A DNA stretch of 28,609 nt from a virus (lineage: Duplodnaviria > Caudoviricetes), in IMG/VR virus record IMGVR_UViG_3300027975_000012, positions 1 through 28,609 of that record, one strand, 5' to 3'. Below the pieces are notes generated by a model. The model saw only the letters and a list, made by a program, of their open reading frames with translations, was not told the DNA's origin and did not search any database. Position 1 is the first letter of the stretch. Every line of letters begins with the position of its first letter. Shown here piece by piece: positions 1 to 18,697 of this stretch. The position numbers and the translations under genes are program-made.

Positions 1-1598
1 TTTGTTACATCGGCACTAGAGCCTTGAATTAAATAGTTTAACCCTTTGTATGTAAAGTCCCAAGTCCTGGGTAATCCAGATACTTTATCTTCAATAGTTT
101 TAGAAGGCTCTTTGAAATACTTACGACCACCCCAAGTTTGTATTGGTTCTCCAGCATCCCAAGTTGCTTTAATAGAATCTTGGATATTCTTAATTCCCGG
201 AAGATGCTTAAGGTATGATGATTTAATTAATCTAGCCTCATATTCAGATAAGCCCAAACCTTCTGCTAATTTAGGAATCCCAGAACCATACAAAATACTA
301 AACGCAGTAGTCTTTGCACTTAACCGAGTTAACTCTTTGCCTGTTGCTTGCGTTAGAATGCTAGACATCATTGCGTGCATGTCAAGTCTTGGTTCCGCCC
401 GAAATGCTCGCATCAAAGCATCATCATCATAATGGGCTAGTAAGCGGATTTCTTGGGAAGCATAATCATTTTCGCACCAATCATGCCCTTCTTCAGGTAG
501 AAAGTATTTTTTCATTATAGGTAGCGGTGGAAGACTGAAGCCTTCTGGTACTATGACTTTTCTTGATGGTACATTTAGCATTGATGGATTAGAAGATAAC
601 CTTCCTGTCCTAGTACCCGCAAAGCCACCATTTTGTTCATTGTTACGCACTTGATTCCAAGTGAAGTGGAGACGACCATTGACATTTTTCTCAACCCAAG
701 AAGATAAAAAGGTACCAACAAATGTTGATAAAGTAGCTCTATAGTTAAGTAGCGCTAACAATTCAGGGTCATTAATGGCTTGGGCTAAGCTAGCTTTGTT
801 TGTCGCGTTTTTTCCAGTTTTAGTTTTAAGCCAATTAATATCTTCATAGTTATTTTCTACCGCCTTCGCTAATTCTGCACCACTATCAATATTAAAAGTC
901 ATTCCTAATTTAGTATATATTCTAGCCTCAATATCGTTTTTAATTTTTGAGTATTTAATAAGGTCCGTGTATAGAGTTACTTCGTCTAATCGTATGCCGT
1001 CTAAAGTACTCTGACATAAGATAGGCATTAGTTGCATCTCACGATCGTAGGCTTTACCTCTATGCTCTTCGTATATCTTACAGAATAATGCATGGGTCAT
1101 ATCTGTATCGGCACAGGCATAAGGTGCAACCATGTCACCAGGGACTTTTGATATATAAGCACCAAGGTTCGACTTAGCACCAGAGACATTGGTTTTTATC
1201 CAATCGTATAATTCTGTTTGCTCTAAGGCAGATCGCCCAAGAATTTTTTCAGCAGAAGGCTTTAGGGATAAGGTGAGAGCATGCGGATTTGCTAAGAATA
1301 AAAGAATTAAAGTATCATGTAGCTTAGCCGGGAAGTCTATACCAAAATGATACTTTGCAACTGAGATATCAAATGTAGCATTGTGGCATAGAATCGGATG
1401 GTTTTTGAATAAATCCACTAAGATATTTGATGCTCTGGTATGCGAGCAGTTATTACCACCCGGATGGCCCCATGCTAAATAATAGCTTGGTTGCCCAGGC
1501 ATTTTAATTGATACCCCAACAGGCAATGGTGGTAGGCTGCCTTCTATTGCTTCTGTTTCAAAGTCAATGGTTACTAGGTTGTCTAAGAGGCTCATCAT
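1..1598 (-). CDS. polA: Family A DNA polymerase with N-terminal 3'-5' exonuclease, truncated at the window edge (not in ORF track)
   Basis: Manual translation of both ends: MMSLLDNLVTIDFETEAI (ExoI DxE), motif A NDYASQEIRLLAHY, motif B RLSAKTTAFSILYG, then NYLIQGSSADVTK at the edge. Start overlaps the upstream stop (ATGA). Confidence 0.95.
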   Translation of the reverse strand, partial: MMSLLDNLVTIDFETEAIEGSLPPLPVGVSIKMPGQPSYYLAWGHPGGNNCSHTRASNILVDLFKNHPILCHNATFDISVAKYHFGIDFPAKLHDTLILLFLANPHALTLSLKPSAEKILGRSALEQTELYDWIKTNVSGAKSNLGAYISKVPGDMVAPYACADTDMTHALFCKIYEEHRGKAYDREMQLMPILCQSTLDGIRLDEVTLYTDLIKYSKIKNDIEARIYTKLGMTFNIDSGAELAKAVENNYEDINWLKTKTGKNATNKASLAQAINDPELLALLNYRATLSTFVGTFLSSWVEKNVNGRLHFTWNQVRNNEQNGGFAGTRTGRLSSNPSMLNVPSRKVIVPEGFSLPPLPIMKKYFLPEEGHDWCENDYASQEIRLLAHYDDDALMRAFRAEPRLDMHAMMSSILTQATGKELTRLSAKTTAFSILYGSGIPKLAEGLGLSEYEARLIKSSYLKHLPGIKNIQDSIKATWDAGEPIQTWGGRKYFKEPSKTIEDKVSGLPRTWDFTYKGLNYLIQGSSADVT

Positions 1599-2816: not shown

Positions 2817-3203
2817 TTAGTTACCTGCCTTTGTTAAAGATACTTTAGTTAACTCGAATACCTCAGTTCCGGGAACGATTAGATTGCTTTCTTCTTTAAA
2901 TGATTTCCATACAGGAACAGATATTCTTTTCTGCAGTAAACCAAATTCATTTGTAGTAGCCACAAACTTATAGAGTATGGGCCAATTTGTAACATTGGGT
3001 GTAATTTCAGTTTTAAAACTAAAATTAGCCCTATTACCACGCCCAGCTTTTAAGTCTACTTCACTTAAGCCAGAAACAATATCTTTACTTAATTGAGCCT
3101 CCACTTTCTTTAACACATCAGCGGCTCGCTCTAGTTTCAAACGTTCTTCTCTAGTTTCATATAGTGCGTCAATCATTGCACCTATTGCACCTGTGTTATT
3201 CAT
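2817..3203 (-). CDS. Hypothetical coiled-coil protein (Gam/Gp157-like architecture)
   Basis: N-terminal coiled coil then PNVTNW...LLQKRIS; start ATG 3203 with SD GAGGTG. Confidence 0.7.
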   Translation of the reverse strand: MNNTGAIGAMIDALYETREERLKLERAADVLKKVEAQLSKDIVSGLSEVDLKAGRGNRANFSFKTEITPNVTNWPILYKFVATTNEFGLLQKRISVPVWKSFKEESNLIVPGTEVFELTKVSLTKAGN

Positions 3204-3588
3204 AAGACACCTCAAGAATTTCAGCAATTTTAATTTCAGGTGATACCCAATCAGCCGGCTTTACTAAATCATGTATGTATCCCCTTTTACCTAGATTTTC
3301 TGGGTCTACTTTTATTTTTAACATGTTAGCTTCATGCACAGCATTCCAAAGAGCATCAAATGGAAGGCCCATTTCAATAACACCACCAAATGCTACGTAG
3401 ACTATATCTACAATAGCATCAGCAGCTGCTACTAAGTCTCTGTCATTATGGGCTGTTACAAGCTCACTTACTTCTTCCATTAAAAACTTAACTCTAAATT
3501 GCAAAGTTTCACGATCTAGCAAAGTTGGTTCTAGAGCTATTGGCAGCTTAAACTTCTTTCTTAATTCTTCTACATCATCAATATACAT
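3196..3588 (-). CDS. All-alpha NTP pyrophosphohydrolase (MazG/PRA-PH, DR2231-like)
   Basis: EEVSE...ADAIVDIVYV metal motif, VHEANMLK, KPADW. Confidence 0.88.
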   Translation of the reverse strand: MYIDDVEELRKKFKLPIALEPTLLDRETLQFRVKFLMEEVSELVTAHNDRDLVAAADAIVDIVYVAFGGVIEMGLPFDALWNAVHEANMLKIKVDPENLGKRGYIHDLVKPADWVSPEIKIAEILEVSYE

Positions 3589-3598
3589 TATTATCTCC

Positions 3599-3922
3599 TC
3601 AAATAGTACAAATTATAAATTTGATTCCAATTTCTCTCAGTGCTTTATTGCATTTAGCGCAGGGTACTTTGGTAACAATAGCCGCATAAGGTATTTTACC
3701 CAAGGGAATATTGCCAATAGCCGCAAGTTCAGCATGTAATGTTCCACAGCTAACTTCACCATTTATCGCGGGGCAATGGTCACCTACACAATAACCACTA
3801 TTGTAGCCACTAGCAATTGGGTCCCAGTCACAATCAACAATAATACAACCCACTTGGGCTCTTTTACAACTTGCTAAGCGGCTTATGTTTTGCGCAAAGT
3901 TTGCCAAACGCTCAATGCTCAT
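3599..3922 (-). CDS. Deoxycytidylate (dCMP) deaminase, compact
   Basis: SCKRAQVGCII, SGYN, HAE and PCAKC zinc motifs. Confidence 0.9.
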   Translation of the reverse strand: MSIERLANFAQNISRLASCKRAQVGCIIVDCDWDPIASGYNSGYCVGDHCPAINGEVSCGTLHAELAAIGNIPLGKIPYAAIVTKVPCAKCNKALREIGIKFIICTI

Positions 3923-3930
3923 TTTGTCAC

Positions 3931-4743
3931 CTATACAAACAATTCAAACTTCATAACCGGACCATGGTTATAACCTAATAAAGTTACATCTAAATCAGGG
4001 TCAAAATTCCATATAGTGACATTAGGGCCTATTACTAAATCAGGAGACTTAAAGACTTCGAGTTTTTCAAAGCGAATTGCATCCATTACATGTGGTAGGT
4101 AAATATGGGCATTATGCAAATCAAACCGCATAGTGCCTACTTTAAGCCCAGTCTGTTGTGCTAGCAAATGCTGAAGTAAAGCATACACTACCATATCATA
4201 TGGCAATCCCAGCATAACATCACAAGACCTCATAGTTACAATGGAATCAAGCTTGCCTTTATGCACATTATACTGTGCACTTATATGACATGGAGGTAAA
4301 ACCATTTCATTAATTTCACCAGGATTCCATGTTTGTAAAATAAGTCGCCGCGAGGCTGGGTCATTTTTAATCATTGCGACCAAAACATCTAATTGATTAA
4401 GCCAGGTTTTTTTGTCTTTGCCAAATGGTGGACATTCCCAATCAACCCATTGCTTGCCATAAATTGGGCCAAGATCATCAATATCAGGCCGACCAAATTT
4501 ATCCCAATAATTACAGCCATTAGCCCGAAACTCTGACTTTTTAGTTTGACCTTTAAGGAACGTAGCCAACTCACCAACAGCCTGACTAAAATCAATCTTA
4601 CGGGCTGTGACAATTGGAAAGCCATCAGCTAGATCAACGGTTAATGTCTCACCAAAAATGGCCAGTGTACCTTTGCCAGTGCGGTCACTGTATTCTTCAC
4701 CTTTTGATAGGATTCTTCCTACTAAGTCTTTATACTCTCTCAT
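3931..4743 (-). CDS. thyA: Thymidylate synthase homolog; Asp at Asn177-equivalent suggests dCMP methyltransferase
   Basis: DRTGKGT, LGPIYGKQW, SRR, LPPCH (Cys152), RSCDVMLGLPYD (Asp183), HIY. Confidence 0.92.
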   Translation of the reverse strand: MREYKDLVGRILSKGEEYSDRTGKGTLAIFGETLTVDLADGFPIVTARKIDFSQAVGELATFLKGQTKKSEFRANGCNYWDKFGRPDIDDLGPIYGKQWVDWECPPFGKDKKTWLNQLDVLVAMIKNDPASRRLILQTWNPGEINEMVLPPCHISAQYNVHKGKLDSIVTMRSCDVMLGLPYDMVVYALLQHLLAQQTGLKVGTMRFDLHNAHIYLPHVMDAIRFEKLEVFKSPDLVIGPNVTIWNFDPDLDVTLLGYNHGPVMKFELFV

Positions 4744-4754
4744 ATTAATTCTCC

Positions 4755-5111
4755 TCAGGAGTTTGCTATTAAGTAGTCCATCATCTTTTCTTTTCTATTG
4801 GCCATCATCCAACCAGGCCTATTTTCTACCATCCACTTACAATCATAAGAAATCATAACATCAGGATAGTTATCTGCAAGCCATTCTGGGTAATGTTTTA
4901 CAACCCAAAGCGGCCTATTCGTTACAACCCAATTTGGCATATTCTCAAATATGAATTGATCAGCTTTTGAGAACATTGTATACGGATTATCTAAGAACCA
5001 ATCACGATAGTGAGCATACACCCATTCAGGGCTTATCATGCACATCTCATATCTTTCTGCATGGGCAAACCCATCACGCTTTTCGAGCCTAGGCTTATAA
5101 TCCGCGTTCAT
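4755..5111 (-). CDS. Hypothetical protein with 8-residue Pro/Trp repeats
   Basis: PNWVVTNR-PLWVVKHY-PEWLADNY-PDVMISYD-CKWMVENR-PGWMMANR; ATGA-coupled to the upstream gene. Confidence 0.8.
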   Translation of the reverse strand: MNADYKPRLEKRDGFAHAERYEMCMISPEWVYAHYRDWFLDNPYTMFSKADQFIFENMPNWVVTNRPLWVVKHYPEWLADNYPDVMISYDCKWMVENRPGWMMANRKEKMMDYLIANS

Positions 5112-5404
5112 TTGGACTTTGCTGTATTAGACTTTTCTTCAACAAGATAGTTAACTACTAACTGAGAATAGCCACAAATGTCAACCCAATTATCCGGATA
5201 TAATGGGTCACCGTTTAAAATACGAGCCATTTTATGACATATCATCGTTAAAGCTTCTTTTTGGATATTCCGGAGCTCAGCCCAGTTTGGATTATCTCGT
5301 AAAGTCTCTTGCAATTCTTGTGATATATTACTATGCCTCACAAAAGAACCATACCGCTCTCCACGTTGTTTTAGTATCTCTGGTATTTCTACTGCATTAG
5401 ACAT
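5108..5404 (-). CDS. DUF6378-like alpha-helical protein, possibly nucleotide metabolism
   Basis: ILKQRGERYGSF...KMARILNGDP...DNWVDICGY; start ATG 5404 after TTGGAG. Confidence 0.8.
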   Translation of the reverse strand: MSNAVEIPEILKQRGERYGSFVRHSNISQELQETLRDNPNWAELRNIQKEALTMICHKMARILNGDPLYPDNWVDICGYSQLVVNYLVEEKSNTAKSK

Positions 5405-5421
5405 TGTTTTCTCCAAGTATA

Positions 5422-5454
5422 ACTGCACCTACATATAAGATGTATAGGTGCAGT
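5422..5454. terminator. Intergenic stem-loop (weak terminator or processing site)
   Basis: ACTGCACCTA...TAGGTGCAGT 10-bp perfect stem; only a poor U-tail on the minus strand. Confidence 0.5.
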
Positions 5455-5477
5455 CTTTATGATTAAATGGTTAAGCT

Positions 5478-6104
5478 TTACGCAGCTTCAGCTTCTTCAG
5501 TGGCTTCTTCATCAGTCTGGTCCCCTTCGAGGCCTTGGTCTTCAGTTGCTTCAGCAGGCTTTGCTTTAACAGGACGTTTGCCATCAGGCCAATTTTTCAA
5601 TGCGTTGCGGTACCAGTTGATGCAGTTAATGTTGGTACGATTTTCAGGCCATTCTTCAGCTACACGTGCCATTATTTCATCGTTGGTAAGCCCTTCAGTA
5701 ATTAAGCCCTTAATGAATGCACCGACGCCAGTAGGACCGCGGGCAACAACAGCTTTGCCACTTAAGCCTTTGATTTCAGCTTTGATTTCATCAGCTCTTG
5801 TAGTAATAGTAGCCAGCTCTTCACGCAACTCATTCAAGCGAAGTTCATTGGCTGCTTTTTCTTCAGCCGCTGCTTCAATTTGTTCTGCAGTCAAAATAAC
5901 TAGTTCAGCTTTTGGACCACGTGGGGCTCTTGTTTTCTTTTCGGCAGTTACTTTTACTTTAGCTGCAGCAATGATCGCTTCTGCTTCTGCTTTAGCGGCC
6001 GCCAGAATTTCTTGTGGCGTCATGCCTTCGTAGGGATTAACTTCTTCATTAGAAGTTTCGCCCTCAGGCAATTCGGTTTCTTTATTTGCTTTTACTTTAG
6101 CCAT
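5478..6104 (-). CDS. Acidic coiled-coil protein with C-terminal helical (HTH-like) domain; paralog of 11599..11928
   Basis: TGVGAFIKGLITEGLTNDEI...CINWYRNALK; has its own promoter and SD TTGGAG. Confidence 0.85.
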   Translation of the reverse strand: MAKVKANKETELPEGETSNEEVNPYEGMTPQEILAAAKAEAEAIIAAAKVKVTAEKKTRAPRGPKAELVILTAEQIEAAAEEKAANELRLNELREELATITTRADEIKAEIKGLSGKAVVARGPTGVGAFIKGLITEGLTNDEIMARVAEEWPENRTNINCINWYRNALKNWPDGKRPVKAKPAEATEDQGLEGDQTDEEATEEAEAA

Positions 6105-6163
6105 AGTAGTATCTCCAATATTTAGTTTAAATTATGCTAAGAGGAAATCTCAAAACATAAATA

Positions 6164-6192
6164 ATTATACATTAAAAATTTAAAAAAGTACA
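6164..6192 (-). promoter_or_regulatory. Sigma70-type promoter
   Basis: TGTACT-17-TATAAT preceded by AAAATAA. Confidence 0.75.
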
Positions 6193-6215
6193 TAATTATT
6201 TTTGTAAAACGACGT

Positions 6216-8300
6216 TTAATTTATCTTAACCCCTGGGAAGTACCTCTCTGCTATGAATTTAAGTACGTCGAACTTCTGCTCATGGGAAACTTTATTGTGG
6301 CTTGGTAGGCATAAAACACAAGGTCTCTGCAGTTGCTTTAAAGTTGACATGTTTGTTAGGTTCATCTGGCTATTTTTCTTATCCCACAAGCCATTTTCAT
6401 AGCCAGCTGCTCTAAGGCGGTTTATAAAGGAGCCTTTACTTAGTTTACTATTATGATTTTCACTCATATACCGATCATACTCAAGCCTAGGAACTACATA
6501 AGGTACATCAGCAAGCTCCTCTCTAACATAGAAGTCAGAATCGTGCATAGTTGCTTCAGCAAAGGCATCTTTACTGTCATTCATAGGCGCTGGTTGTGTA
6601 CCGTCATAGCCTTTTAGATCATAGTTCAAATAATAGTCTAACAAAGCACTGCGGGCTTCTTCAGTATTGACCCATTTCTTTAAAGCATTGTTTTCATCAG
6701 CCCAGAATGCCTTTAATTTTGGGCCTAATCCACCACTGGCTGAAACACTATAGATAACTTCACGCCGGGACTCTGGCTCTACGATATGAGTATAGGCTTC
6801 ATTTGTGGTTATGCAGATTTGAAGATAGTTTTTAATGGACCTGGCTTTGACATACTTTTCATTGACAGTCAAAGACCGGCCAGTGGTCATGTTTTTGATT
6901 AAATTGGTATGCTTCTCTCCTTTCTCACCAATTTCGTTGAGCACTAAAAATTTTCTATCAGCTATTAGTGAGTTAAAGTTATCCCAAAGGTCTCCACCGC
7001 TAGAAACTAGGGCATGGCTGAACTTACCATTAGGCACACCGCGGGGAGCATTGTTTATTATGGCTGCTATGGTCTCAAAATAGAACGACTTACCAATACC
7101 TTGGACTTTAGATTGTAAAATACAGATTCGTTCCTGCTTAACCTCTGGTCTCTGCAGGGTTAGTGCCATACACTCTTCAAAGTAAGGCTTAATCTCAGGG
7201 TCTTCACTAAAGAATAGGTTTGTGAAGTCAGTCCAAGGCTTCGCTTTATTAAAGATGTCAGCCTGGTCATCTAAGTAGCCAGTCCTGCCATAATGCGGCT
7301 GGGTTTTTATGCCTCGCCAATTATTAAGAGCGTAGTTCTTCGTGATTAAGGAGCTACACCCTATGTCAAACTCAATATTTGAAATATGCAGACGGTCAGA
7401 TGCACCCAAGAACTTCTTAGTTGGATGGTCCTCTTTATCATCTGGCTCTGATTCATAGGGATTCTGACAGTTTGCTTCTTCATTCTTAAACTTCTGTACA
7501 GAATAGACTTCAGCGTTGGTAACATCCACGACATCACCCTGCATCACTCCATACTTTGACAATAAAAAGTCCACGCCATCGGATTTAGTGGGCCTGAATC
7601 TCTTTGCGTGATTGAATAGCTCTTGCATTGAGCCACCAAACTCTAAAAAGTCATCTAGGCCTATTTTTTGCGTAGCACCGTTGGTGCCTAACCGGGTGAA
7701 GAATACGTTGCAGCCTCTAATTTTTAGCATCGACGCTAGTCTGAGCTCCGCTTTTCTCACTTCAGGTTTCGGGTCACCATTATACGGCGGCACGGGGTCA
7801 TAATCAAACGTAATATAGACGGTCTTACCAATTGGTAACGAATTGAGTGGCTCCAGCAATACTTTATTGTCATTCCAATATGTTGTAGTACTAGATACGC
7901 CACCCAGGGCTACTGTGGGGACATCTTTACAGGCTATGCTTTTAAATTCTCCTTCTGTTATTTGCAGGGCTATATTGATATTGCTCAAAGTCTCTTTGAC
8001 AACATCGGGGCAATAGACATAATTGTTGGTCCCCGCTTTTTGAAAGTACTTAGCACCACTGAAAAGTCCTAAAAACCGATACCGGCAGAACTTCGCATTG
8101 GGGTACTCTATTTTGATTGCTCCGGAGCCTTTAGCAAACCCAATCTCTTTGGGCATATCTGCTAATGCTATTAGTGACAAGCCATAGTCTTTGGCTGTAT
8201 CGGGGTTTAATCCCAGTTGGAGTAATCGGCCAAAATACTCTTTTTCGGCCGACTCTGCATTTGCCTCTTGAGCTTTTGCTGTGAAGGAATTCGCAGTCAT
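6216..8300 (-). CDS. Primase-helicase (TOPRIM DUF3854-like plus SF3/DUF5906-like NTPase)
   Basis: ITEGEFKS, VYITFDYD, GLDDFL (TOPRIM); QGIGKS Walker A, FLVLNE Walker B, ICITTN motif C. Confidence 0.88.
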   Translation of the reverse strand: MTANSFTAKAQEANAESAEKEYFGRLLQLGLNPDTAKDYGLSLIALADMPKEIGFAKGSGAIKIEYPNAKFCRYRFLGLFSGAKYFQKAGTNNYVYCPDVVKETLSNINIALQITEGEFKSIACKDVPTVALGGVSSTTTYWNDNKVLLEPLNSLPIGKTVYITFDYDPVPPYNGDPKPEVRKAELRLASMLKIRGCNVFFTRLGTNGATQKIGLDDFLEFGGSMQELFNHAKRFRPTKSDGVDFLLSKYGVMQGDVVDVTNAEVYSVQKFKNEEANCQNPYESEPDDKEDHPTKKFLGASDRLHISNIEFDIGCSSLITKNYALNNWRGIKTQPHYGRTGYLDDQADIFNKAKPWTDFTNLFFSEDPEIKPYFEECMALTLQRPEVKQERICILQSKVQGIGKSFYFETIAAIINNAPRGVPNGKFSHALVSSGGDLWDNFNSLIADRKFLVLNEIGEKGEKHTNLIKNMTTGRSLTVNEKYVKARSIKNYLQICITTNEAYTHIVEPESRREVIYSVSASGGLGPKLKAFWADENNALKKWVNTEEARSALLDYYLNYDLKGYDGTQPAPMNDSKDAFAEATMHDSDFYVREELADVPYVVPRLEYDRYMSENHNSKLSKGSFINRLRAAGYENGLWDKKNSQMNLTNMSTLKQLQRPCVLCLPSHNKVSHEQKFDVLKFIAERYFPGVKIN

Positions 8301-9699: not shown

Positions 9700-9969
9700 T
9701 CAATAAGGGTTGCAGGAGGTCACTCTACCATAGGCGTAACACCGGAACGCGGGGCTATTGGCTCTACGGGCTTCTTCCACCCGCAGAGCTCGGGACATGC
9801 CTCTAACGAACATGTCCCAGCCAGACAACTCTGGTACACGCTGTTGTTCGTCTCTTTGGCGAGCATACAACTCCCAGGGTAAATCACTATCTGGCACCAA
9901 CCTGGAATTAAGTGGGGTCGAAGCGCATGCTGTTAGGGATAGCATTGCTATTAGGATTAAGGTTTTCAT
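9700..9969 (-). CDS. Early lipoprotein
   Basis: MKTLILIAMLSLTA-C signal peptide with LTAC lipobox; C-terminal Cys pair. Confidence 0.8.
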   Translation of the reverse strand: MKTLILIAMLSLTACASTPLNSRLVPDSDLPWELYARQRDEQQRVPELSGWDMFVRGMSRALRVEEARRANSPAFRCYAYGRVTSCNPY

Positions 9970-10136
9970 TTTAATGCCTCTAAGGTTTGGATATGCTCTT
10001 TTCTTTTTTGGTTACTAATTTTTGCGGTTATTACATTACATTGCTTACAGCGGGGCCGATAACCATCTAAAGTTCTTTTACTTTTACTGAAGGCCTCAAT
10101 TGGGAGTTCTTTATTACAATGAGTGCAGGTTTTCAT
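9966..10136 (-). CDS. Single Cys4 zinc-finger protein, 56 aa (not in track)
   Basis: MKTCTHCNKELPIEAFSKSKRTLDGYRPRCKQC...; ATGA-coupled to the lipoprotein gene. Confidence 0.75.
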   Translation of the reverse strand: MKTCTHCNKELPIEAFSKSKRTLDGYRPRCKQCNVITAKISNQKRKEHIQTLEALK

Positions 10137-10146
10137 AATGCTGGTC

Positions 10147-10530
10147 TCATATTAATTTGGATAGACATACTTTACATTGGGCTCTATGATTGTCTTTAGA
10201 TTGCTTGTTAGTATCAAAAGCCCAGAGCGGTTTCACTTGTTTGCATGCTATACATCTTTTATTTACGCCCCATTGGAGTTTAGGCTCATCAGGACCTTTG
10301 GGGTCATTCGGGTTCTTTTTCAATCTACAGGTGCAACTTATGCAATACTGCCGGAGGCCATCTGATGATGCTGGCATTGGACTGAATGCGGAGGCACTAA
10401 GAAGCTGATTACAATGCTTACACTTCTTGAATTTAGGGGGCCATTCTTTAGCTTTTGCTACTATGGCATCTGCTTTTCTAATGGTCATGGCCATGATTAT
10501 AGCTTCACGTTCTAGGGATGTTAGTTTCAT
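10147..10530 (-). CDS. Double Cys4 zinc-finger protein
   Basis: Two CxxC...AF...D(G/N)....CxxC units. Confidence 0.8.
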   Translation of the reverse strand: MKLTSLEREAIIMAMTIRKADAIVAKAKEWPPKFKKCKHCNQLLSASAFSPMPASSDGLRQYCISCTCRLKKNPNDPKGPDEPKLQWGVNKRCIACKQVKPLWAFDTNKQSKDNHRAQCKVCLSKLI

Positions 10531-10618
10531 TTTAGGGTCCTCTTTTTAATGATCTAGGGTGCTTTGCCAGCTATTTACTACGTTAACTAAAACGCTTTTT
10601 AGATAGTGTCATTTGCTA

Positions 10619-10795
10619 GGAGCGTAAGTCGTTGTTTTATAAGCGTTTAGCCTCTTGCTTCGTAATAGCACTGTTTTAAACGGTTTTAAAAACTTTTATA
10701 AAGTATATATTTTAGGGGCTTTACAGTGTTTATATATATATTTAATATTATTAAGATAGTAAGATAAGTATATATAAAACAATAACTTACGCTCC
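10619..10795. other. Candidate replication origin: 23-bp inverted repeats around an AT-rich core
   Basis: GGAGCGTAAGTCGTTGTTTTATA / TATAAAACAATAACTTACGCTCC (21/23 match) in a noncoding gap. Confidence 0.5.
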
Positions 10796-10830
10796 AAACT
10801 CAAAAGTCTTCGCTACGACCGAAGTCAGAC

Positions 10831-10844
10831 GGCCATCCTTGGCC
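10831..10844 (-). promoter_or_regulatory. GGA-loop hairpin (CsrA/RsmA-type)
   Basis: GGCC-AAGGAU-GGCC. Confidence 0.5.
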
Positions 10845-10855
10845 CCTTTGCTCCT

Positions 10856-11062
10856 TTAATTCAAGCTTGGTTGATAAAAACCGCCATCATCCAAGTAAGA
10901 TAAGAGCCTAGAGCCTTTGTTCAAAATAGCATCCAGCCACTCTTCAGCTTCTACAATACTCAGGCCCAGCCCACCGTAAGGTAAGCCAGCATCCAGCCTA
11001 GATTCCTGGCATATAGTAACATAACCAGCCCACATCAGTTCTAATATTTCATAAGCATTCAT
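10856..11062 (-). CDS. Early hypothetical protein
   Basis: Leader GAGAGAACTACA-ATG. Confidence 0.75.
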   Translation of the reverse strand: MNAYEILELMWAGYVTICQESRLDAGLPYGGLGLSIVEAEEWLDAILNKGSRLLSYLDDGGFYQPSLN

Positions 11063-11092
11063 TGTAGTTCTCTCGGTTAAAGTTAAAGTTGA

Positions 11093-11104
11093 GCCATCCT
11101 TGGC
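11093..11104 (-). promoter_or_regulatory. GGA-loop hairpin (CsrA/RsmA-type)
   Basis: GCC-AAGGAU-GGC upstream of the RBS. Confidence 0.55.
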
Positions 11105-11124
11105 CCCTTTGCTGCTAAAATGCT

Positions 11125-11313
11125 TTAGTTTTGAAAAGTTTCTAAGTACAATTTAAACTCTGCAATATCAGAGTCTGTGTACTCAAGTCTTAGAGCCAGA
11201 GCTTTGTAGTACTCAAAGTTAGCACAAGTTACTGGAACCACAGCTCTTGGATACTTGAGCCCGATGTAGTGGTTCATTTGGATGATTGTTGCATATAAGT
11301 CATTAGTAGTCAT
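11125..11313 (-). CDS. Early hypothetical protein, 62 aa
   Basis: Start moved to 11313 (TTGGAGTACTACA-ATG). Confidence 0.75.
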   Translation of the reverse strand: MTTNDLYATIIQMNHYIGLKYPRAVVPVTCANFEYYKALALRLEYTDSDIAEFKLYLETFQN

Positions 11314-11958: not shown

Positions 11959-12190
11959 ATGCTTTTTAATAATTCAAAAAACACATGCTTTTATAAACTG
12001 TTTTTTAATAAATGTAAACAACTATTTTAATTAAACAATGCTTTTTAATAATTCAAAAAACATATGCTTTTATAAGCTGTTTTTTAATAAATGTAAACAA
12101 TTATTTTAATTAAACAATGCTTTTTAATAATTCAAAAAACATATGCTTTTATAAACTGTTTTTTAATAAATGTAAACAATTATTTTAATT
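11959..12190 (-). repeat. Three tandem 79-bp AT-rich repeats, each with a leftward promoter
   Basis: Units start at 11959, 12038, 12117; each has AAAATA(A/G)TTG-TTTACA-17-TATAAA on the minus strand. Confidence 0.92.
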
Positions 12191-14329: not shown

Positions 14330-15753
14330 TGGATATAATATATAAAGCCTCCAAGACCCTTAGAAAGTTCCACAAAGATAATAACTTTGTAAGAACAGTT
14401 ATAGGGCCCATTGGTAGCGGAAAGTCCGTTGGTTGTATTGCAGATTTACTTATGAGAGCCCATGCGCAGAAGCCCAATGCTGAAGGTATTAGGCAGACGC
14501 GTTGGGTGATTATACGGAACACGTACCGTGAGTTGTTTGATACCACGCTAGTTACGTTCCACGAATGGATTCCCGCGGATAGCGGGGAGTTCTCAATGAA
14601 GAACATGAAGTTCACTCTCGAGTATAAGATGGAGGACGGTACTACGCTCCATGCGGAGTTTCTGTTCAGGGCTTTAGATCGACCCAATGATGTTAAGAAG
14701 TTATTATCATTGGAGGTAACAGGCGGGTTTATTAATGAGTGCCGCGAGATACCGAGAGCCGTAGTGGATATGCTCCAAGGTCGTTGTGGTAGGTACCCCA
14801 AAACTATATTGGACCCAGAGACAGACGAAGTCATATCAGAGCCCACTTGGTTTGGTATCATAATGGATACTAACCCGCCAGATTCTGATAGTTGGTACTA
14901 CAAGTTGTTTGAAGTTAACTTGCCTAAGAACCACAGCATATACCACCAGCCTAGTGGGTTGAGTGAAGAAGCAGAGAATATTAAGTACTTGCCGAAAAGC
15001 TATTATACTAATATGATGCAAGGCAAGGACAAAGAGTGGATTGACGTTTACGTCCATGGAATTTATGGGTTTACATCAGATGGTAAGCCAGTATTCCCTG
15101 AATATAAGGACCATGCTCATTCAACACAAGAGCGCTATGAGCCAGACCCTAAGAGGACCCTGTACATTGGGATTGACTTTGGACTGACCCCTGCTGCAAT
15201 ATTTGGGCAGATTACAGCAAGTGGTCAATTTGTTTTGTTTGATGAGTTATGCACCTTTGATATGGGTGCGGTATCTTTTGGTAAGTTGCTAAAAGAGAAG
15301 TTGAATTCAAAGTACATAAACTTTAAGGATATTGAGGTCTACGCAGACCCTGCTGGAGAGCAACGGGCTCAAACAGATGAAGTGACCCCGTTCCTAATCC
15401 TGCAGAACCAAGGGATTAATGCGGTTCCTGCATATACAAATGACTTCACAATACGAAGGGAAGTTATTGCAGAGTATATGATGCGGTTGGACTTTAATGG
15501 TATGCCAGCCCTACAAGTTACCCCTGGCGCACCGACATTGCGAAAAGGGTTTGCTGGTGGATATAAGTATAAGAAGATGCAGGTTTCTGGTCAAGAACGT
15601 TACCAAGAGAAACCAGATAAAGGCAAGTATTCACATGCCTGTGATGCTTGCCAGTATTTATTTTTAGGAGCAGTTGGTGGTGGTAGAGTTATCGGAGGTT
15701 TTGATAACACTAAGCCAATTGATTACTCTAAACAAAACGCAAGTTACAGATAG
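14329..15753 (+). CDS. terL: Terminase large subunit
   Basis: GPIGSGKS Walker A, GFINE Walker B, DTNPP, nuclease motifs IGIDFG and SHACDACQY. Confidence 0.95.
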   Translation: MDIIYKASKTLRKFHKDNNFVRTVIGPIGSGKSVGCIADLLMRAHAQKPNAEGIRQTRWVIIRNTYRELFDTTLVTFHEWIPADSGEFSMKNMKFTLEYKMEDGTTLHAEFLFRALDRPNDVKKLLSLEVTGGFINECREIPRAVVDMLQGRCGRYPKTILDPETDEVISEPTWFGIIMDTNPPDSDSWYYKLFEVNLPKNHSIYHQPSGLSEEAENIKYLPKSYYTNMMQGKDKEWIDVYVHGIYGFTSDGKPVFPEYKDHAHSTQERYEPDPKRTLYIGIDFGLTPAAIFGQITASGQFVLFDELCTFDMGAVSFGKLLKEKLNSKYINFKDIEVYADPAGEQRAQTDEVTPFLILQNQGINAVPAYTNDFTIRREVIAEYMMRLDFNGMPALQVTPGAPTLRKGFAGGYKYKKMQVSGQERYQEKPDKGKYSHACDACQYLFLGAVGGGRVIGGFDNTKPIDYSKQNASYR

Positions 15754-15839
15754 AATTGCTAAAGTAGTGAGACACAGAAGCATACGAACCCTAGGGTTGC
15801 CGGATAACGTAACCGAGCACTAATTTTTGAGGACAAAGG

Positions 15840-16547
15840 ATGAGCCAGGCGCTTTATGATGCATTAAACGGCATGAGCCCAGAAGAGTTGTGGGCCCGCT
15901 ATAAACAATACCCTTGGAAAAATAACCAAGGTAAATTAGTTATGCAAGGTGAGCCAGATCAGTATCGTGGCCCAGGGCTGCCTAATGGTGTCAAAGCAGC
16001 TAAGCTGCCCAGTCATGTTATGGGTGTAACACTAATCAAACCTCCGCGTACTAATAAATATACAGGTATACTGCTAAATAATACCTTAGATATAAGCTCA
16101 TTAGTAAAAGCTCTTAATCATGAAAAGCAGCATGAAAAACAAATTGATACTAATTTACCTCTAGGGCCAATAGTAGACCTTAAACAAAAAACAAATAGAC
16201 TGGGCTATACAGATAATTTTGGTGAAGAACAAGCCAGGATGGCTGGCAACAGAAGCGCGCTATCAGATGTATATAAGAGTGTAGTTCATCCATATTCACA
16301 AATGTATCCAGATGAGGGTGGTGACTTTAGGGCATACGATATTGAAAATAGATTAGGCTCTAAAGCGCAAGCATATACTAGTCTAATAGCCCAACTAGCA
16401 AAATATGGAAATGGCGTTAGGATGCAAGATTCACAAGAAGCAGTATCAAACCAAATGCAAGATCGTGGTTTAACAATAGAAGAAGTATTGGATCAACTAA
16501 GAAAAAGATACATTCCACCATTTTTATCACCAGGGCTACAAGAGTAA
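15840..16547 (+). CDS. Second, shorter LPD23-like HExxH protein
   Basis: LWARYKQYPWKNNQG...GEPD, LNHEKQHEKQ, GEEQARM. Confidence 0.7.
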   Translation: MSQALYDALNGMSPEELWARYKQYPWKNNQGKLVMQGEPDQYRGPGLPNGVKAAKLPSHVMGVTLIKPPRTNKYTGILLNNTLDISSLVKALNHEKQHEKQIDTNLPLGPIVDLKQKTNRLGYTDNFGEEQARMAGNRSALSDVYKSVVHPYSQMYPDEGGDFRAYDIENRLGSKAQAYTSLIAQLAKYGNGVRMQDSQEAVSNQMQDRGLTIEEVLDQLRKRYIPPFLSPGLQE

Positions 16548-18697
16548 TGGCAAAAACACCAAAATTAACTAACGATGATATTCTTGACATCGTAAACGCT
16601 GAGTTAGAGAATGCTCCAGTTAACAACAACTTGGAGACTCCACTGGCGTATTATCTTGGTGAGCCCAACGGTACTGAAGTTGAAGGCAAATCATCTTTAA
16701 TGTCTTTAGACGTTGCAGATGCTATTGAGTGGATTATGCCACAAATAATGAAGTCATTCACTCAAACGAACGAAATCGTTATCTTTGACCCATGCGGTCC
16801 AGAGGATGAAAGACAAGCTGAACTAGAATCAGAGTACGTTTACAATATTCTGATGAAGAAAAACCCAGGTTTCATATTGGTCCACCAGTTTGTTAAGGAT
16901 GCGCTATTACAGCGTAATGGAATTCTTAAGTGTTACTATGAGTCTCATGACCAGGTAACTAAAGAAGAGTATACCGGTTTAACAGAACAGCAATTACAAA
17001 TGCTGTTGTCTGATAAGACCGTTGAACTCTTGTCTATGGAACAAATAATAGACATAGACCCAATGCTTGGTCAGCAAATACTGTTTAATGTTAAGATTCA
17101 GATAACAGTAAAGAAACCAAAAATCCGCGTCCTACCTGTACCTCCAGAAGAGTTCAGGGTTAACTCAAGTCATAACTCAATTGACTTAACAGATGCTAGG
17201 TTTACTGCGCATGTAACAAACAAAACTCTTTCACAATTGCGTGAGGAGGGCGTTTCTGAAGGCATACTTGACGAGCTAAGTACAGGATTTAACAACCAGT
17301 CCAATTATCGTTTCCAATTGCAAGGTGAAAATTCGACTGTTAATGAAGGTTGGACTAAAGCCAATGATGCAATGCGTTTAATACAAGTAGTGGAATGCTA
17401 TTTGTACATTGACATTGATGGCGATGGTATCGCAGAGTATGTCAAAGTAACCTGCGCAGGTAATGAAACATTTGATACGTTCATCTCAATGGAGGAGATG
17501 ACAGAAAGTCCATGGATTAGCGCCACAGCTATTTTGATGTCACATAAATTTCAAGGTTTATCAATCTTTGATAGACTGAAAGAAATTCAAGATAACAAAA
17601 CCGCATTGATACGCAATATTCAAGATAATATATACTTGCAAAATAACCAACGTATGGGTGTTTTGACAGGTCAAGTTAACATGGATGACATATTGGTATC
17701 TCGACCAGGCGGCGTAGTTAGAATGTCCAGGCCTGATGCGCTATTCCCAATCATCACGCCTAAGATTGGTATGGAATCATTCGAATTCATGCGTTACCTT
17801 GATGAAGTGCGTGCAGGACGTTCTGGAGTATCTGCTGAAGGTAGCGCAACACCACAAAACATTGGCGATCGTGTAGGTTCTCAAGGTGTAGAGCGACTAA
17901 TGACTGCCAAAGAAGAATTGGTAGGCTTAATAGTTCGCGTATTTGCAGAAACGGGGATTAAACCCCTTTGCTTAAAGATTAGAGATTTAGCGAGGCGTCA
18001 TGTCGATACCATTGAGAATTTCAAATTTAGGGGTGAATGGGTACAAATCAATCCTGCTCAGTGGAATGAGCGTTCTGAATCAACTGTTCGTGTTGGTACT
18101 GGCTCTGGAGATACTACAGCCAAACTAGCAGCAATCAACCAAGTTATTCAAATGCAAACCCAAGCACTACAAATGCCAGGGCAAGCAATAGTTGACCCAA
18201 CCAAAGTATACTCAGCATTAAATGATTTTTGTAAGTTCTCTGGTCTTAATGGTGCTGATAAGTATTTTATTGACCCGACTAGCGATTCAGGTAAGCAGAA
18301 GCAACTGCAATCAGACCAACAAATGCAGGCTGAGAAGCAGAAAGCAGATCAGCAGCAACAAGCAATGATTCAAATGCAAGTACAACTGGCTCAAGCAGAA
18401 ATGCTTAAAGCTCAAGTTGCACAAGAAAACGTTAAGTTGAAGGGCCAAACTGAACTTGCTAAACATCAGCGTGAAATGGACAAACAAACATACGAAGCTC
18501 AATTGGCCCAGCTTGAGTCACAGATTAAGATCGTCCAACAAGTTGCTAACGGCCAAGAGAAAGACGACCGATTGGAGTTTGATTACCAAAAATTGGCATC
18601 TGATTTAGCGTTGAGAATAACTGAATTAGAAGCACAATATAAGCAGCAACAATTGGAAATGAGTTATCAGGAAAATAAAGGGGCAACTGAGGAATGA
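16547..18697 (+). CDS. Portal protein (P22/SU10-type with long C-terminal coiled coil)
   Basis: YYLGEP.G.EVEGKS...DVADAIEWIMP, KDALLQRNG, VPPEEF, RPGGVVR, Gln-rich tail; position after terL. Confidence 0.92.
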   Translation: MAKTPKLTNDDILDIVNAELENAPVNNNLETPLAYYLGEPNGTEVEGKSSLMSLDVADAIEWIMPQIMKSFTQTNEIVIFDPCGPEDERQAELESEYVYNILMKKNPGFILVHQFVKDALLQRNGILKCYYESHDQVTKEEYTGLTEQQLQMLLSDKTVELLSMEQIIDIDPMLGQQILFNVKIQITVKKPKIRVLPVPPEEFRVNSSHNSIDLTDARFTAHVTNKTLSQLREEGVSEGILDELSTGFNNQSNYRFQLQGENSTVNEGWTKANDAMRLIQVVECYLYIDIDGDGIAEYVKVTCAGNETFDTFISMEEMTESPWISATAILMSHKFQGLSIFDRLKEIQDNKTALIRNIQDNIYLQNNQRMGVLTGQVNMDDILVSRPGGVVRMSRPDALFPIITPKIGMESFEFMRYLDEVRAGRSGVSAEGSATPQNIGDRVGSQGVERLMTAKEELVGLIVRVFAETGIKPLCLKIRDLARRHVDTIENFKFRGEWVQINPAQWNERSESTVRVGTGSGDTTAKLAAINQVIQMQTQALQMPGQAIVDPTKVYSALNDFCKFSGLNGADKYFIDPTSDSGKQKQLQSDQQMQAEKQKADQQQQAMIQMQVQLAQAEMLKAQVAQENVKLKGQTELAKHQREMDKQTYEAQLAQLESQIKIVQQVANGQEKDDRLEFDYQKLASDLALRITELEAQYKQQQLEMSYQENKGATEE

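Follow-up and report, generated by a model that had tools for sequence, protein, structure and literature searches.

A ThyA-like phage enzyme with aspartate at the pyrimidine-specificity position is a predicted dCMP methyltransferase encoded beside a small deaminase and a pyrophosphatase

The window, by which we mean the whole stretch of 28,609 nucleotides analyzed, was estimated by CheckV to be 70% complete. Its minus strand has a frame from 4743 to 3931 that is open throughout and encodes a thymidylate synthase (TS) homolog of 270 amino acids, surrounded by the genes listed in Table 1, while the remainder of the window carries a terminase and an SU10-like portal and capsid. The original prediction did not mention these neighbors; a deaminase, a PRA-PH pyrophosphatase, a DUF6378 gene, and a family-A DNA polymerase lie around the ThyA homolog, a context consistent with its reading as a dCMP methylase. 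The deaminase gene begins 8 bases past the TS stop, and its product lacks about 30 C-terminal residues of its counterparts of 138 to 176 amino acids. This short version seems to be conserved, since homologs with 97% and 81% identity have the same length of 107 amino acids. The polymerase has its full open reading frame of 602 amino acids in contig L002, and the orthologue at locus L005 matches PF00476. Neither the protein atlas look-up nor the literature search returned a function for DUF6378; at another viral locus (L047:4902-5189), the slot upstream of TS is filled by Nmad1 (DUF1599), suggesting that DUF6378 and Nmad1 may be interchangeable nucleotide-modification accessory genes. The 118-amino-acid open reading frame next to DUF6378 is rich in Trp, Met, and Pro, had no Pfam or PHROG match, and is missing from the corresponding place at the loci L005 and L007.

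Table 1. Positions of the features at the TS locus of the window.
Feature	Position	Strand	Basis
Predicted dCMP C5-methyltransferase (5mdCMP synthase), ThyA fold, Cys152/Asp183	3931..4743	-	270 aa; PF00303 E=6.7e-75; AlphaFold; residues
GAT codon, Asp183 (= E. coli Asn177), pyrimidine-specificity residue	4195..4197	-	
Zinc-dependent dCMP/dCTP-type deaminase, 107 aa, candidate 5mC-nucleotide deaminase	3599..3922	-	PF00383 E=5.1e-12; HAE, PCxxC motifs
MazG-like all-alpha NTP pyrophosphatase (PRA-PH), candidate dCTPase/dUTPase	3196..3588	-	PF01503 E=1.4e-15; PDB 3nl9, DR2231
DUF6378 protein, likely start 5401	5108..5428	-	PF19905 E=5.2e-07
118-aa ORF between DUF6378 and TS	4755..5111	-	no known family
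Family-A DNA polymerase, cut by window end	1..1598	-	open frame; L002 ORF; L005 orthologue

Translation of the TS gene bore out the original prediction that the catalytic residue is Cys152, in a PPCH motif, and that the GAT codon encodes Asp183. E. coli residue numbers were counted on a HMMER alignment with E. coli ThyA, and because this alignment is gap-free from the catalytic Cys to the site, Asp183 corresponds to Asn177 and the proposed match of the Cys/Asp pair with E. coli Cys146/Asn177 held up. The AlphaFold model, made with an input alignment of 24 sequences, had a pLDDT of 94 and superposed on solved ThyA structures with a TM score of 0.95 and an rmsd of about 1.1 to 1.4 Å. With its TS fold, catalytic Cys, and phosphate-binding arginines, the protein belongs to the PF00303 superfamily, and it shares with canonical E. 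coli ThyA the residues Cys146, Arg126/127/166, Ser167, Asp169, His147, His207, and Tyr209. However, it has Asp in place of the Asn177 of canonical dUMP thymidylate synthases, Met in place of Gln165, and Tyr in place of Phe176. PMC13326640 gives 12 residues that lie close to C5 of dUMP, and nine of these were the same as in E. coli; A142, Q165, and N177 are replaced by Val, Met, and Asp, so that the earlier description of the rest of the protein as canonical ThyA stands for the nine shared positions but not for the Val and the Met.

Among the 120 homolog matches listed for the TS, the equivalent of position 177 was Asp in 24 and Asn in 95 (one was not parsed), and the Asp-type homologs took ranks 1 to 23 and 25, down to about 40% identity. 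Asp at this position was invariant in the alignment of 24 sequences, the rows of which had been chosen as Asp-type matches. The codon was also unchanged in contigs of runs X3 and X4, which belong to a study that carries no flag as source of the window DNA, a form of support that comes from assembled contigs and not raw reads; the contigs of run X7 do not span the codon, and no RNA data set was listed as containing the region. A variant contig in X4 had 10 listed changes in the TS gene, nine of them synonymous and the other V185I. The identical TS protein encoded by L002 was not counted as independent support because this contig matches the window at 99.99% identity and may come from the same source. 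Raised together with the original prediction, the reading that GAT arose from AAT through an error in sequencing or assembly is refuted by the Asp in 24 related proteins and by the contigs of other runs; we found no evidence in its favor and regard it as practically impossible.

The original mutagenesis work on the specificity residue is said to be that of Hardy and Nalivaika, of Liu and Santi, and of Graves et al., 1992. In PMC8670742 (MetaGPA), N177D is reported to switch the preference to dCMP, in agreement with the role that the original prediction gave to this exchange, and position 147 ranks second among the sites associated with modification. PMC5175136 gives the same specificity rule for T4 Asp179, and PMC13326640 has dCMP selected by Asp177, correlates an acidic residue at position 143 with hydroxymethylation (as a correlation only), and marks 5-hydroxy-dCMP synthases by Asn169. 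In the phage TS, Leu149 lies at position 143, Asp175 at 169, and Asp183 at 177, and His147 is kept (E. coli numbering), so it has the Asp177, non-acidic residue 143, and retained Asp169 of 5mdCMP synthases of the Xp12/MetaGPA kind. This combination of Leu, Asp, and Asp argues for a predicted methyl product over a hydroxymethyl or hydroxy product. Leu at position 143 is not required, since Xp12 and PaMx74 carry Asn there, together with Pro at position 147.

It is very unlikely that the enzyme is instead a dCMP hydroxymethylase or hydroxylase of the T4 gp42 or RB69 type, with 5hmC or 5-hydroxy-C as the product. Asp177 is common to such enzymes, T4 gp42 shares with the window enzyme the catalytic Cys and the Met at position 165, and the rule for position 143 is described as a correlation only, with Asn143 in Xp12 itself. 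However, T4-type hydroxymethylases have Asp or Glu at position 143 (Asp in the annotated record of T4 gp42, in line with the rule) where the phage enzyme has Leu149, and the 5-hydroxy-dCMP synthases of RB69 and DLP3 have Asn at position 169 where it has Asp175. T4 gp42 also differs in its Thr147 and its adjoining glucosyltransferase; neither these nor the Asp143 occur in the window. The predicted structure reproduces ThyA almost exactly (TM 0.95), whereas T4 gp42 lies on a very long branch, and sugar- or carbamoyl-transfer genes were not found in two near-complete relatives.

The viral loci that we compared were the best 80 of 591, taken from 23 of the 64 parts of the viral collection, and comprised 19 Asp-type and 61 Asn-type loci. 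In this set of the best 80 of 591, a PRA-PH gene lay within 3 kb of TS at 16/19 Asp-type versus 0/61 Asn-type loci and a deaminase gene at 13/19 versus 2/61, a contrast that is descriptive and overstates independence because the profiles used to find neighbors were built from Asp-type genes and the Asp-type loci are related to one another. Several of the Asp-type loci without a neighbor gene are contigs that end beside TS. In the same best 80 of 591, DUF6378 was found within 400 bp, just upstream of TS, at 6/19 Asp-type and 0/61 Asn-type loci, and Met at position 165 accompanied Asp177 in 18/19 Asp-type versus 2/61 Asn-type loci. In the window itself, both of these genes, the PF00383 deaminase and PRA-PH, lie no more than 3 kb from TS. 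Candidate dCMP methylation, as originally predicted, is thus supported at the level of sequence by the code at positions 177, 143, and 169 and by these neighbors, with methyl favored over hydroxymethyl.

A deaminase, a dUTPase-like MazG, and a TS also make up a normal route of dTTP supply. This arrangement would suit an ordinary or dual-specificity thymidylate synthase working on dUMP from an adjacent dCMP deaminase, and so would the 40 to 43% identity to cellular ThyA, which is above that to Xp12, the retained His147, and the finding of a sole TS in relatives. On the other side, N177D is reported in PMC8670742 to switch the preference to dCMP, all 80 of the 80 TS proteins in a metagenome scan covering 4 of 64 parts were of the Asn type, whereas Asp is fixed in a phage group of 43 tree rows, and the PRA-PH linkage was absent from the Asn-type phage TS loci (0/61 among the best 80 of 591). 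We therefore hold an ordinary or dual-specificity enzyme to be highly improbable, and a dCMP methylase remains the preferred reading.

Earlier publications already describe this class of enzyme, its residue rule, and its gene context, with partial tests on other members. The preprint bioRxiv 10.1101/2024.12.05.627091 describes the mining of IMG/VR with the same Asp177 filter and reports that 104/149 deaminases from C-modified contigs lay at most 3 kb from TS, versus 17/277 from unmodified contigs, with PRA-PH and polymerase A among the top co-located domains. Five of seven deaminase-linked Asp177 TS genes gave 5mdC in E. coli with T4 gp1 and two gave none, according to the same preprint. The deaminase mSCD-B5 is described there as turning 5mdCTP into dTTP without acting on 5mdCMP, and its authors propose that this reaction makes a second TS unnecessary. 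The window has in common with this MetaGPA/mSCD-B5 cassette an Asp177 TS accompanied by polymerase A, PRA-PH, and a PF00383 deaminase, but its deaminase has 107 amino acids versus 154 in mSCD-B5. The preprint also states that 5mC selectivity is polyphyletic among deaminases and was seen in 34/194 soluble candidates; because of this, the selectivity of the window deaminase is not decided by sequence alone.

Two viral relatives, G001 and G004, are both 99% complete and have a single TS gene each, of the Asp type; G001 is syntenic with the window, and its TS is 50% identical. No dNMP kinase or DHFR was recognized in the window or in these two relatives. A Pfam search at E<=1e-4 of 110 open reading frames of G001 and G004 (at least 60 amino acids, overlaps pruned, with frames crossing locus borders possibly missed) gave no kinase, DHFR, glycosyltransferase, dioxygenase, carbamoyltransferase, or DNA methyltransferase.

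The intact fold, the catalytic residues, the conserved Asp177, Leu143, and Asp169, the linked deaminase and pyrophosphatase, and the sole TS of the near-complete relatives were observed directly, and characterized relatives provide the model for how PRA-PH, the Asp183 pairing, kinase and polymerase, and the deaminase may act around them. PRA-PH would hydrolyze dCTP (and/or dUTP), which would provide dCMP and prevent unmodified C from entering the DNA, and the TS would use methylene-tetrahydrofolate to convert dCMP to 5-methyl-dCMP. In the active site, Asp183 would pair with the N3/N4 edge of cytosine while Cys152 attacks C6, and hydride transfer would then complete the methyl group, the product expected because the hydrophobic Leu149 gate is kept. 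A host kinase or an unrecognized phage kinase would raise the product to 5mdCTP, which the phage polymerase A could incorporate, and the neighboring deaminase may convert part of the 5-methyl-dC nucleotide pool to thymine nucleotide. The near-complete relatives would need no second, Asn-type TS because the deaminase would supply thymine nucleotide. Overall, our analysis indicates that the TS probably methylates dCMP and that much or all of the cytosine in the phage DNA is probably replaced by 5-methylcytosine, which would likely protect the phage against those restriction enzymes that C5 methylation blocks.

Methylation of dCMP could also serve mainly as a detour to thymine nucleotides, from dCMP through 5mdCMP and deamination, with little or no 5mC in DNA, and the absence of a recognized 5mdCMP kinase, the deaminase directly downstream, and the persisting palindrome avoidance of the window (described below) fit such a role. 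However, PRA-PH is tightly linked (16/19 Asp-type loci among the best 80 of 591) and fits dCTP removal, and no Pfam kinase was found in the 10 Xp12 genes tested, yet Xp12 is fully 5mC substituted. In bioRxiv 10.1101/2024.12.05.627091, TS-deaminase pairs are enriched in C-modified contigs, and the triphosphate must exist in the mSCD-B5 system because the substrate is 5mdCTP and not 5mdCMP. On these grounds, we consider a mere detour quite unlikely compared with incorporation of 5mC into DNA. The latter is weakened by the two of seven published Asp177 enzymes that gave no 5mdC and by the identity of only 29% to Xp12, as well as by the retained His147, the lack of a recognized kinase or DHFR, and the palindrome avoidance.

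The observed/expected ratios in the window were 0.46 for GATC, 0.69 for GCGC, and 0.71 for CATG, and GATC was also scarce at the loci L005 (0.47) and L007 (0.29). This under-use of C-containing palindromes counts against full substitution because a fully protected genome need not avoid them. As a possible proxy for modification, site and dinucleotide usage was also compared between 13 Asp-type and 56 Asn-type loci, all 10 kb or longer and including kin: GCGC and TCGA were less avoided in the Asp type, but the C-free TTAA was shifted too. GpC was at 1.29 in the window and at 1.31 versus 0.97 in the locus comparison, and this enrichment was rejected as a marker of 5mC because it is absent in Xp12 (0.98).

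The original prediction likened the enzyme to that of the fully 5mC-substituted phage Xp12. The likeness holds for the block of genes, as Xp12 and PaMx74 also combine PRA-PH, a TS with Asp177 and Tyr176, and a deaminase, but their block includes a DHFR that the window lineage lacks, and the TS is only 29% identical to that of Xp12, with Leu and His instead of Asn143 and Pro147, which places it outside the Xp12/Pamexvirus orthologous group. The Xp12-like matches listed were 71 to 99% identical within their own group, and the identity between the window and Xp12 deaminases was 24%. The Xp12 stretch also has 68% GC, versus 40% in the window phage with its SU10-like portal and capsid. A quick IQ-TREE analysis of 85 rows with SH-aLRT support took in the full set of Asp-type viral loci apart from the two copies of the window, 23 Asp-type and 7 Asn-type proteins, one in every three Asn-type viral loci, one in every eight metagenome loci, Xp12, PaMx74, and T4 gp42. 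In this quick tree, the TS fell within a group of 43 Asp-only rows (SH-aLRT 90) apart from Asn-type ThyA, but it did not group with Xp12; Xp12/PaMx74 and T4 gp42 sit on long branches, which calls for caution about long-branch effects. We claim that the window TS appears to represent a lineage distinct from Xp12 and do not claim a separate origin of the Asp switch.

None of the cultured phages in the phage collection came close in its TS or polymerase (best TS about 40%, polymerase 35 to 38%), so no virion chemistry is transferable. The cultured phage with the closest polymerase was Stenotrophomonas phage AXL3 (L171), which is annotated, at 2922-3770 and 15353-17884, with both a ThyX-like gene and a methyltransferase/NTP pyrophosphohydrolase/thymidylate synthase block. 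At one viral locus (L035:694-1539, plus strand), an Asp177 TS retains Gln165, branches within the Asn-type ThyA proteins of the quick tree, and has a PRA-PH gene at a distance of 100 bp; this is possibly a separate, recent Asp switch. Another contig, L063, carries two Asp-type TS cassettes (4992-6295 and 9885-11188) with 92% DNA identity, representing either a duplication or a chimeric assembly.

If the preferred reading is true, SU10-portal phages of an uncultured lineage, present in metagenomes of sediment, soil, and wetland, join those that exchange cytosine for 5-methylcytosine ahead of replication. The concept is already published, and the window phage leaves the field unchanged; the points of modest interest are the closeness to ThyA, the conserved length of the 107-amino-acid deaminase, and the slot shared by DUF6378 and Nmad1. 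Compared with the Xp12 enzyme, the window TS resembles E. coli ThyA far more closely, with 9/12 active-site residues in common and His147 retained, and it therefore offers a convenient natural case for asking how few changes lead from a TS to a dCMP methylase. The deaminase is a cheap candidate for screens of 5mC-selective deaminases and, if selective, would be useful for direct sequencing of methylomes. A further and rather unlikely extension is that phages of about 40 kb form a ThyA-proximal lineage apart from Xp12 with full 5mC substitution and a minimal cassette lacking a recognizable kinase or DHFR, in which the deaminase would be an unusually small 5mC-selective type and DUF6378 the missing nucleotide-pool enzyme, acting either in the passage of 5mdCMP to the triphosphate pool or in dCTP removal. 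Elsewhere in the window, the non-coding region at 11959-12111 has repeated segments of about 75 to 150 bp with self-matches at 97%, near the switch from minus-strand replication genes to plus-strand virion genes, and these may be origin or regulatory repeats.
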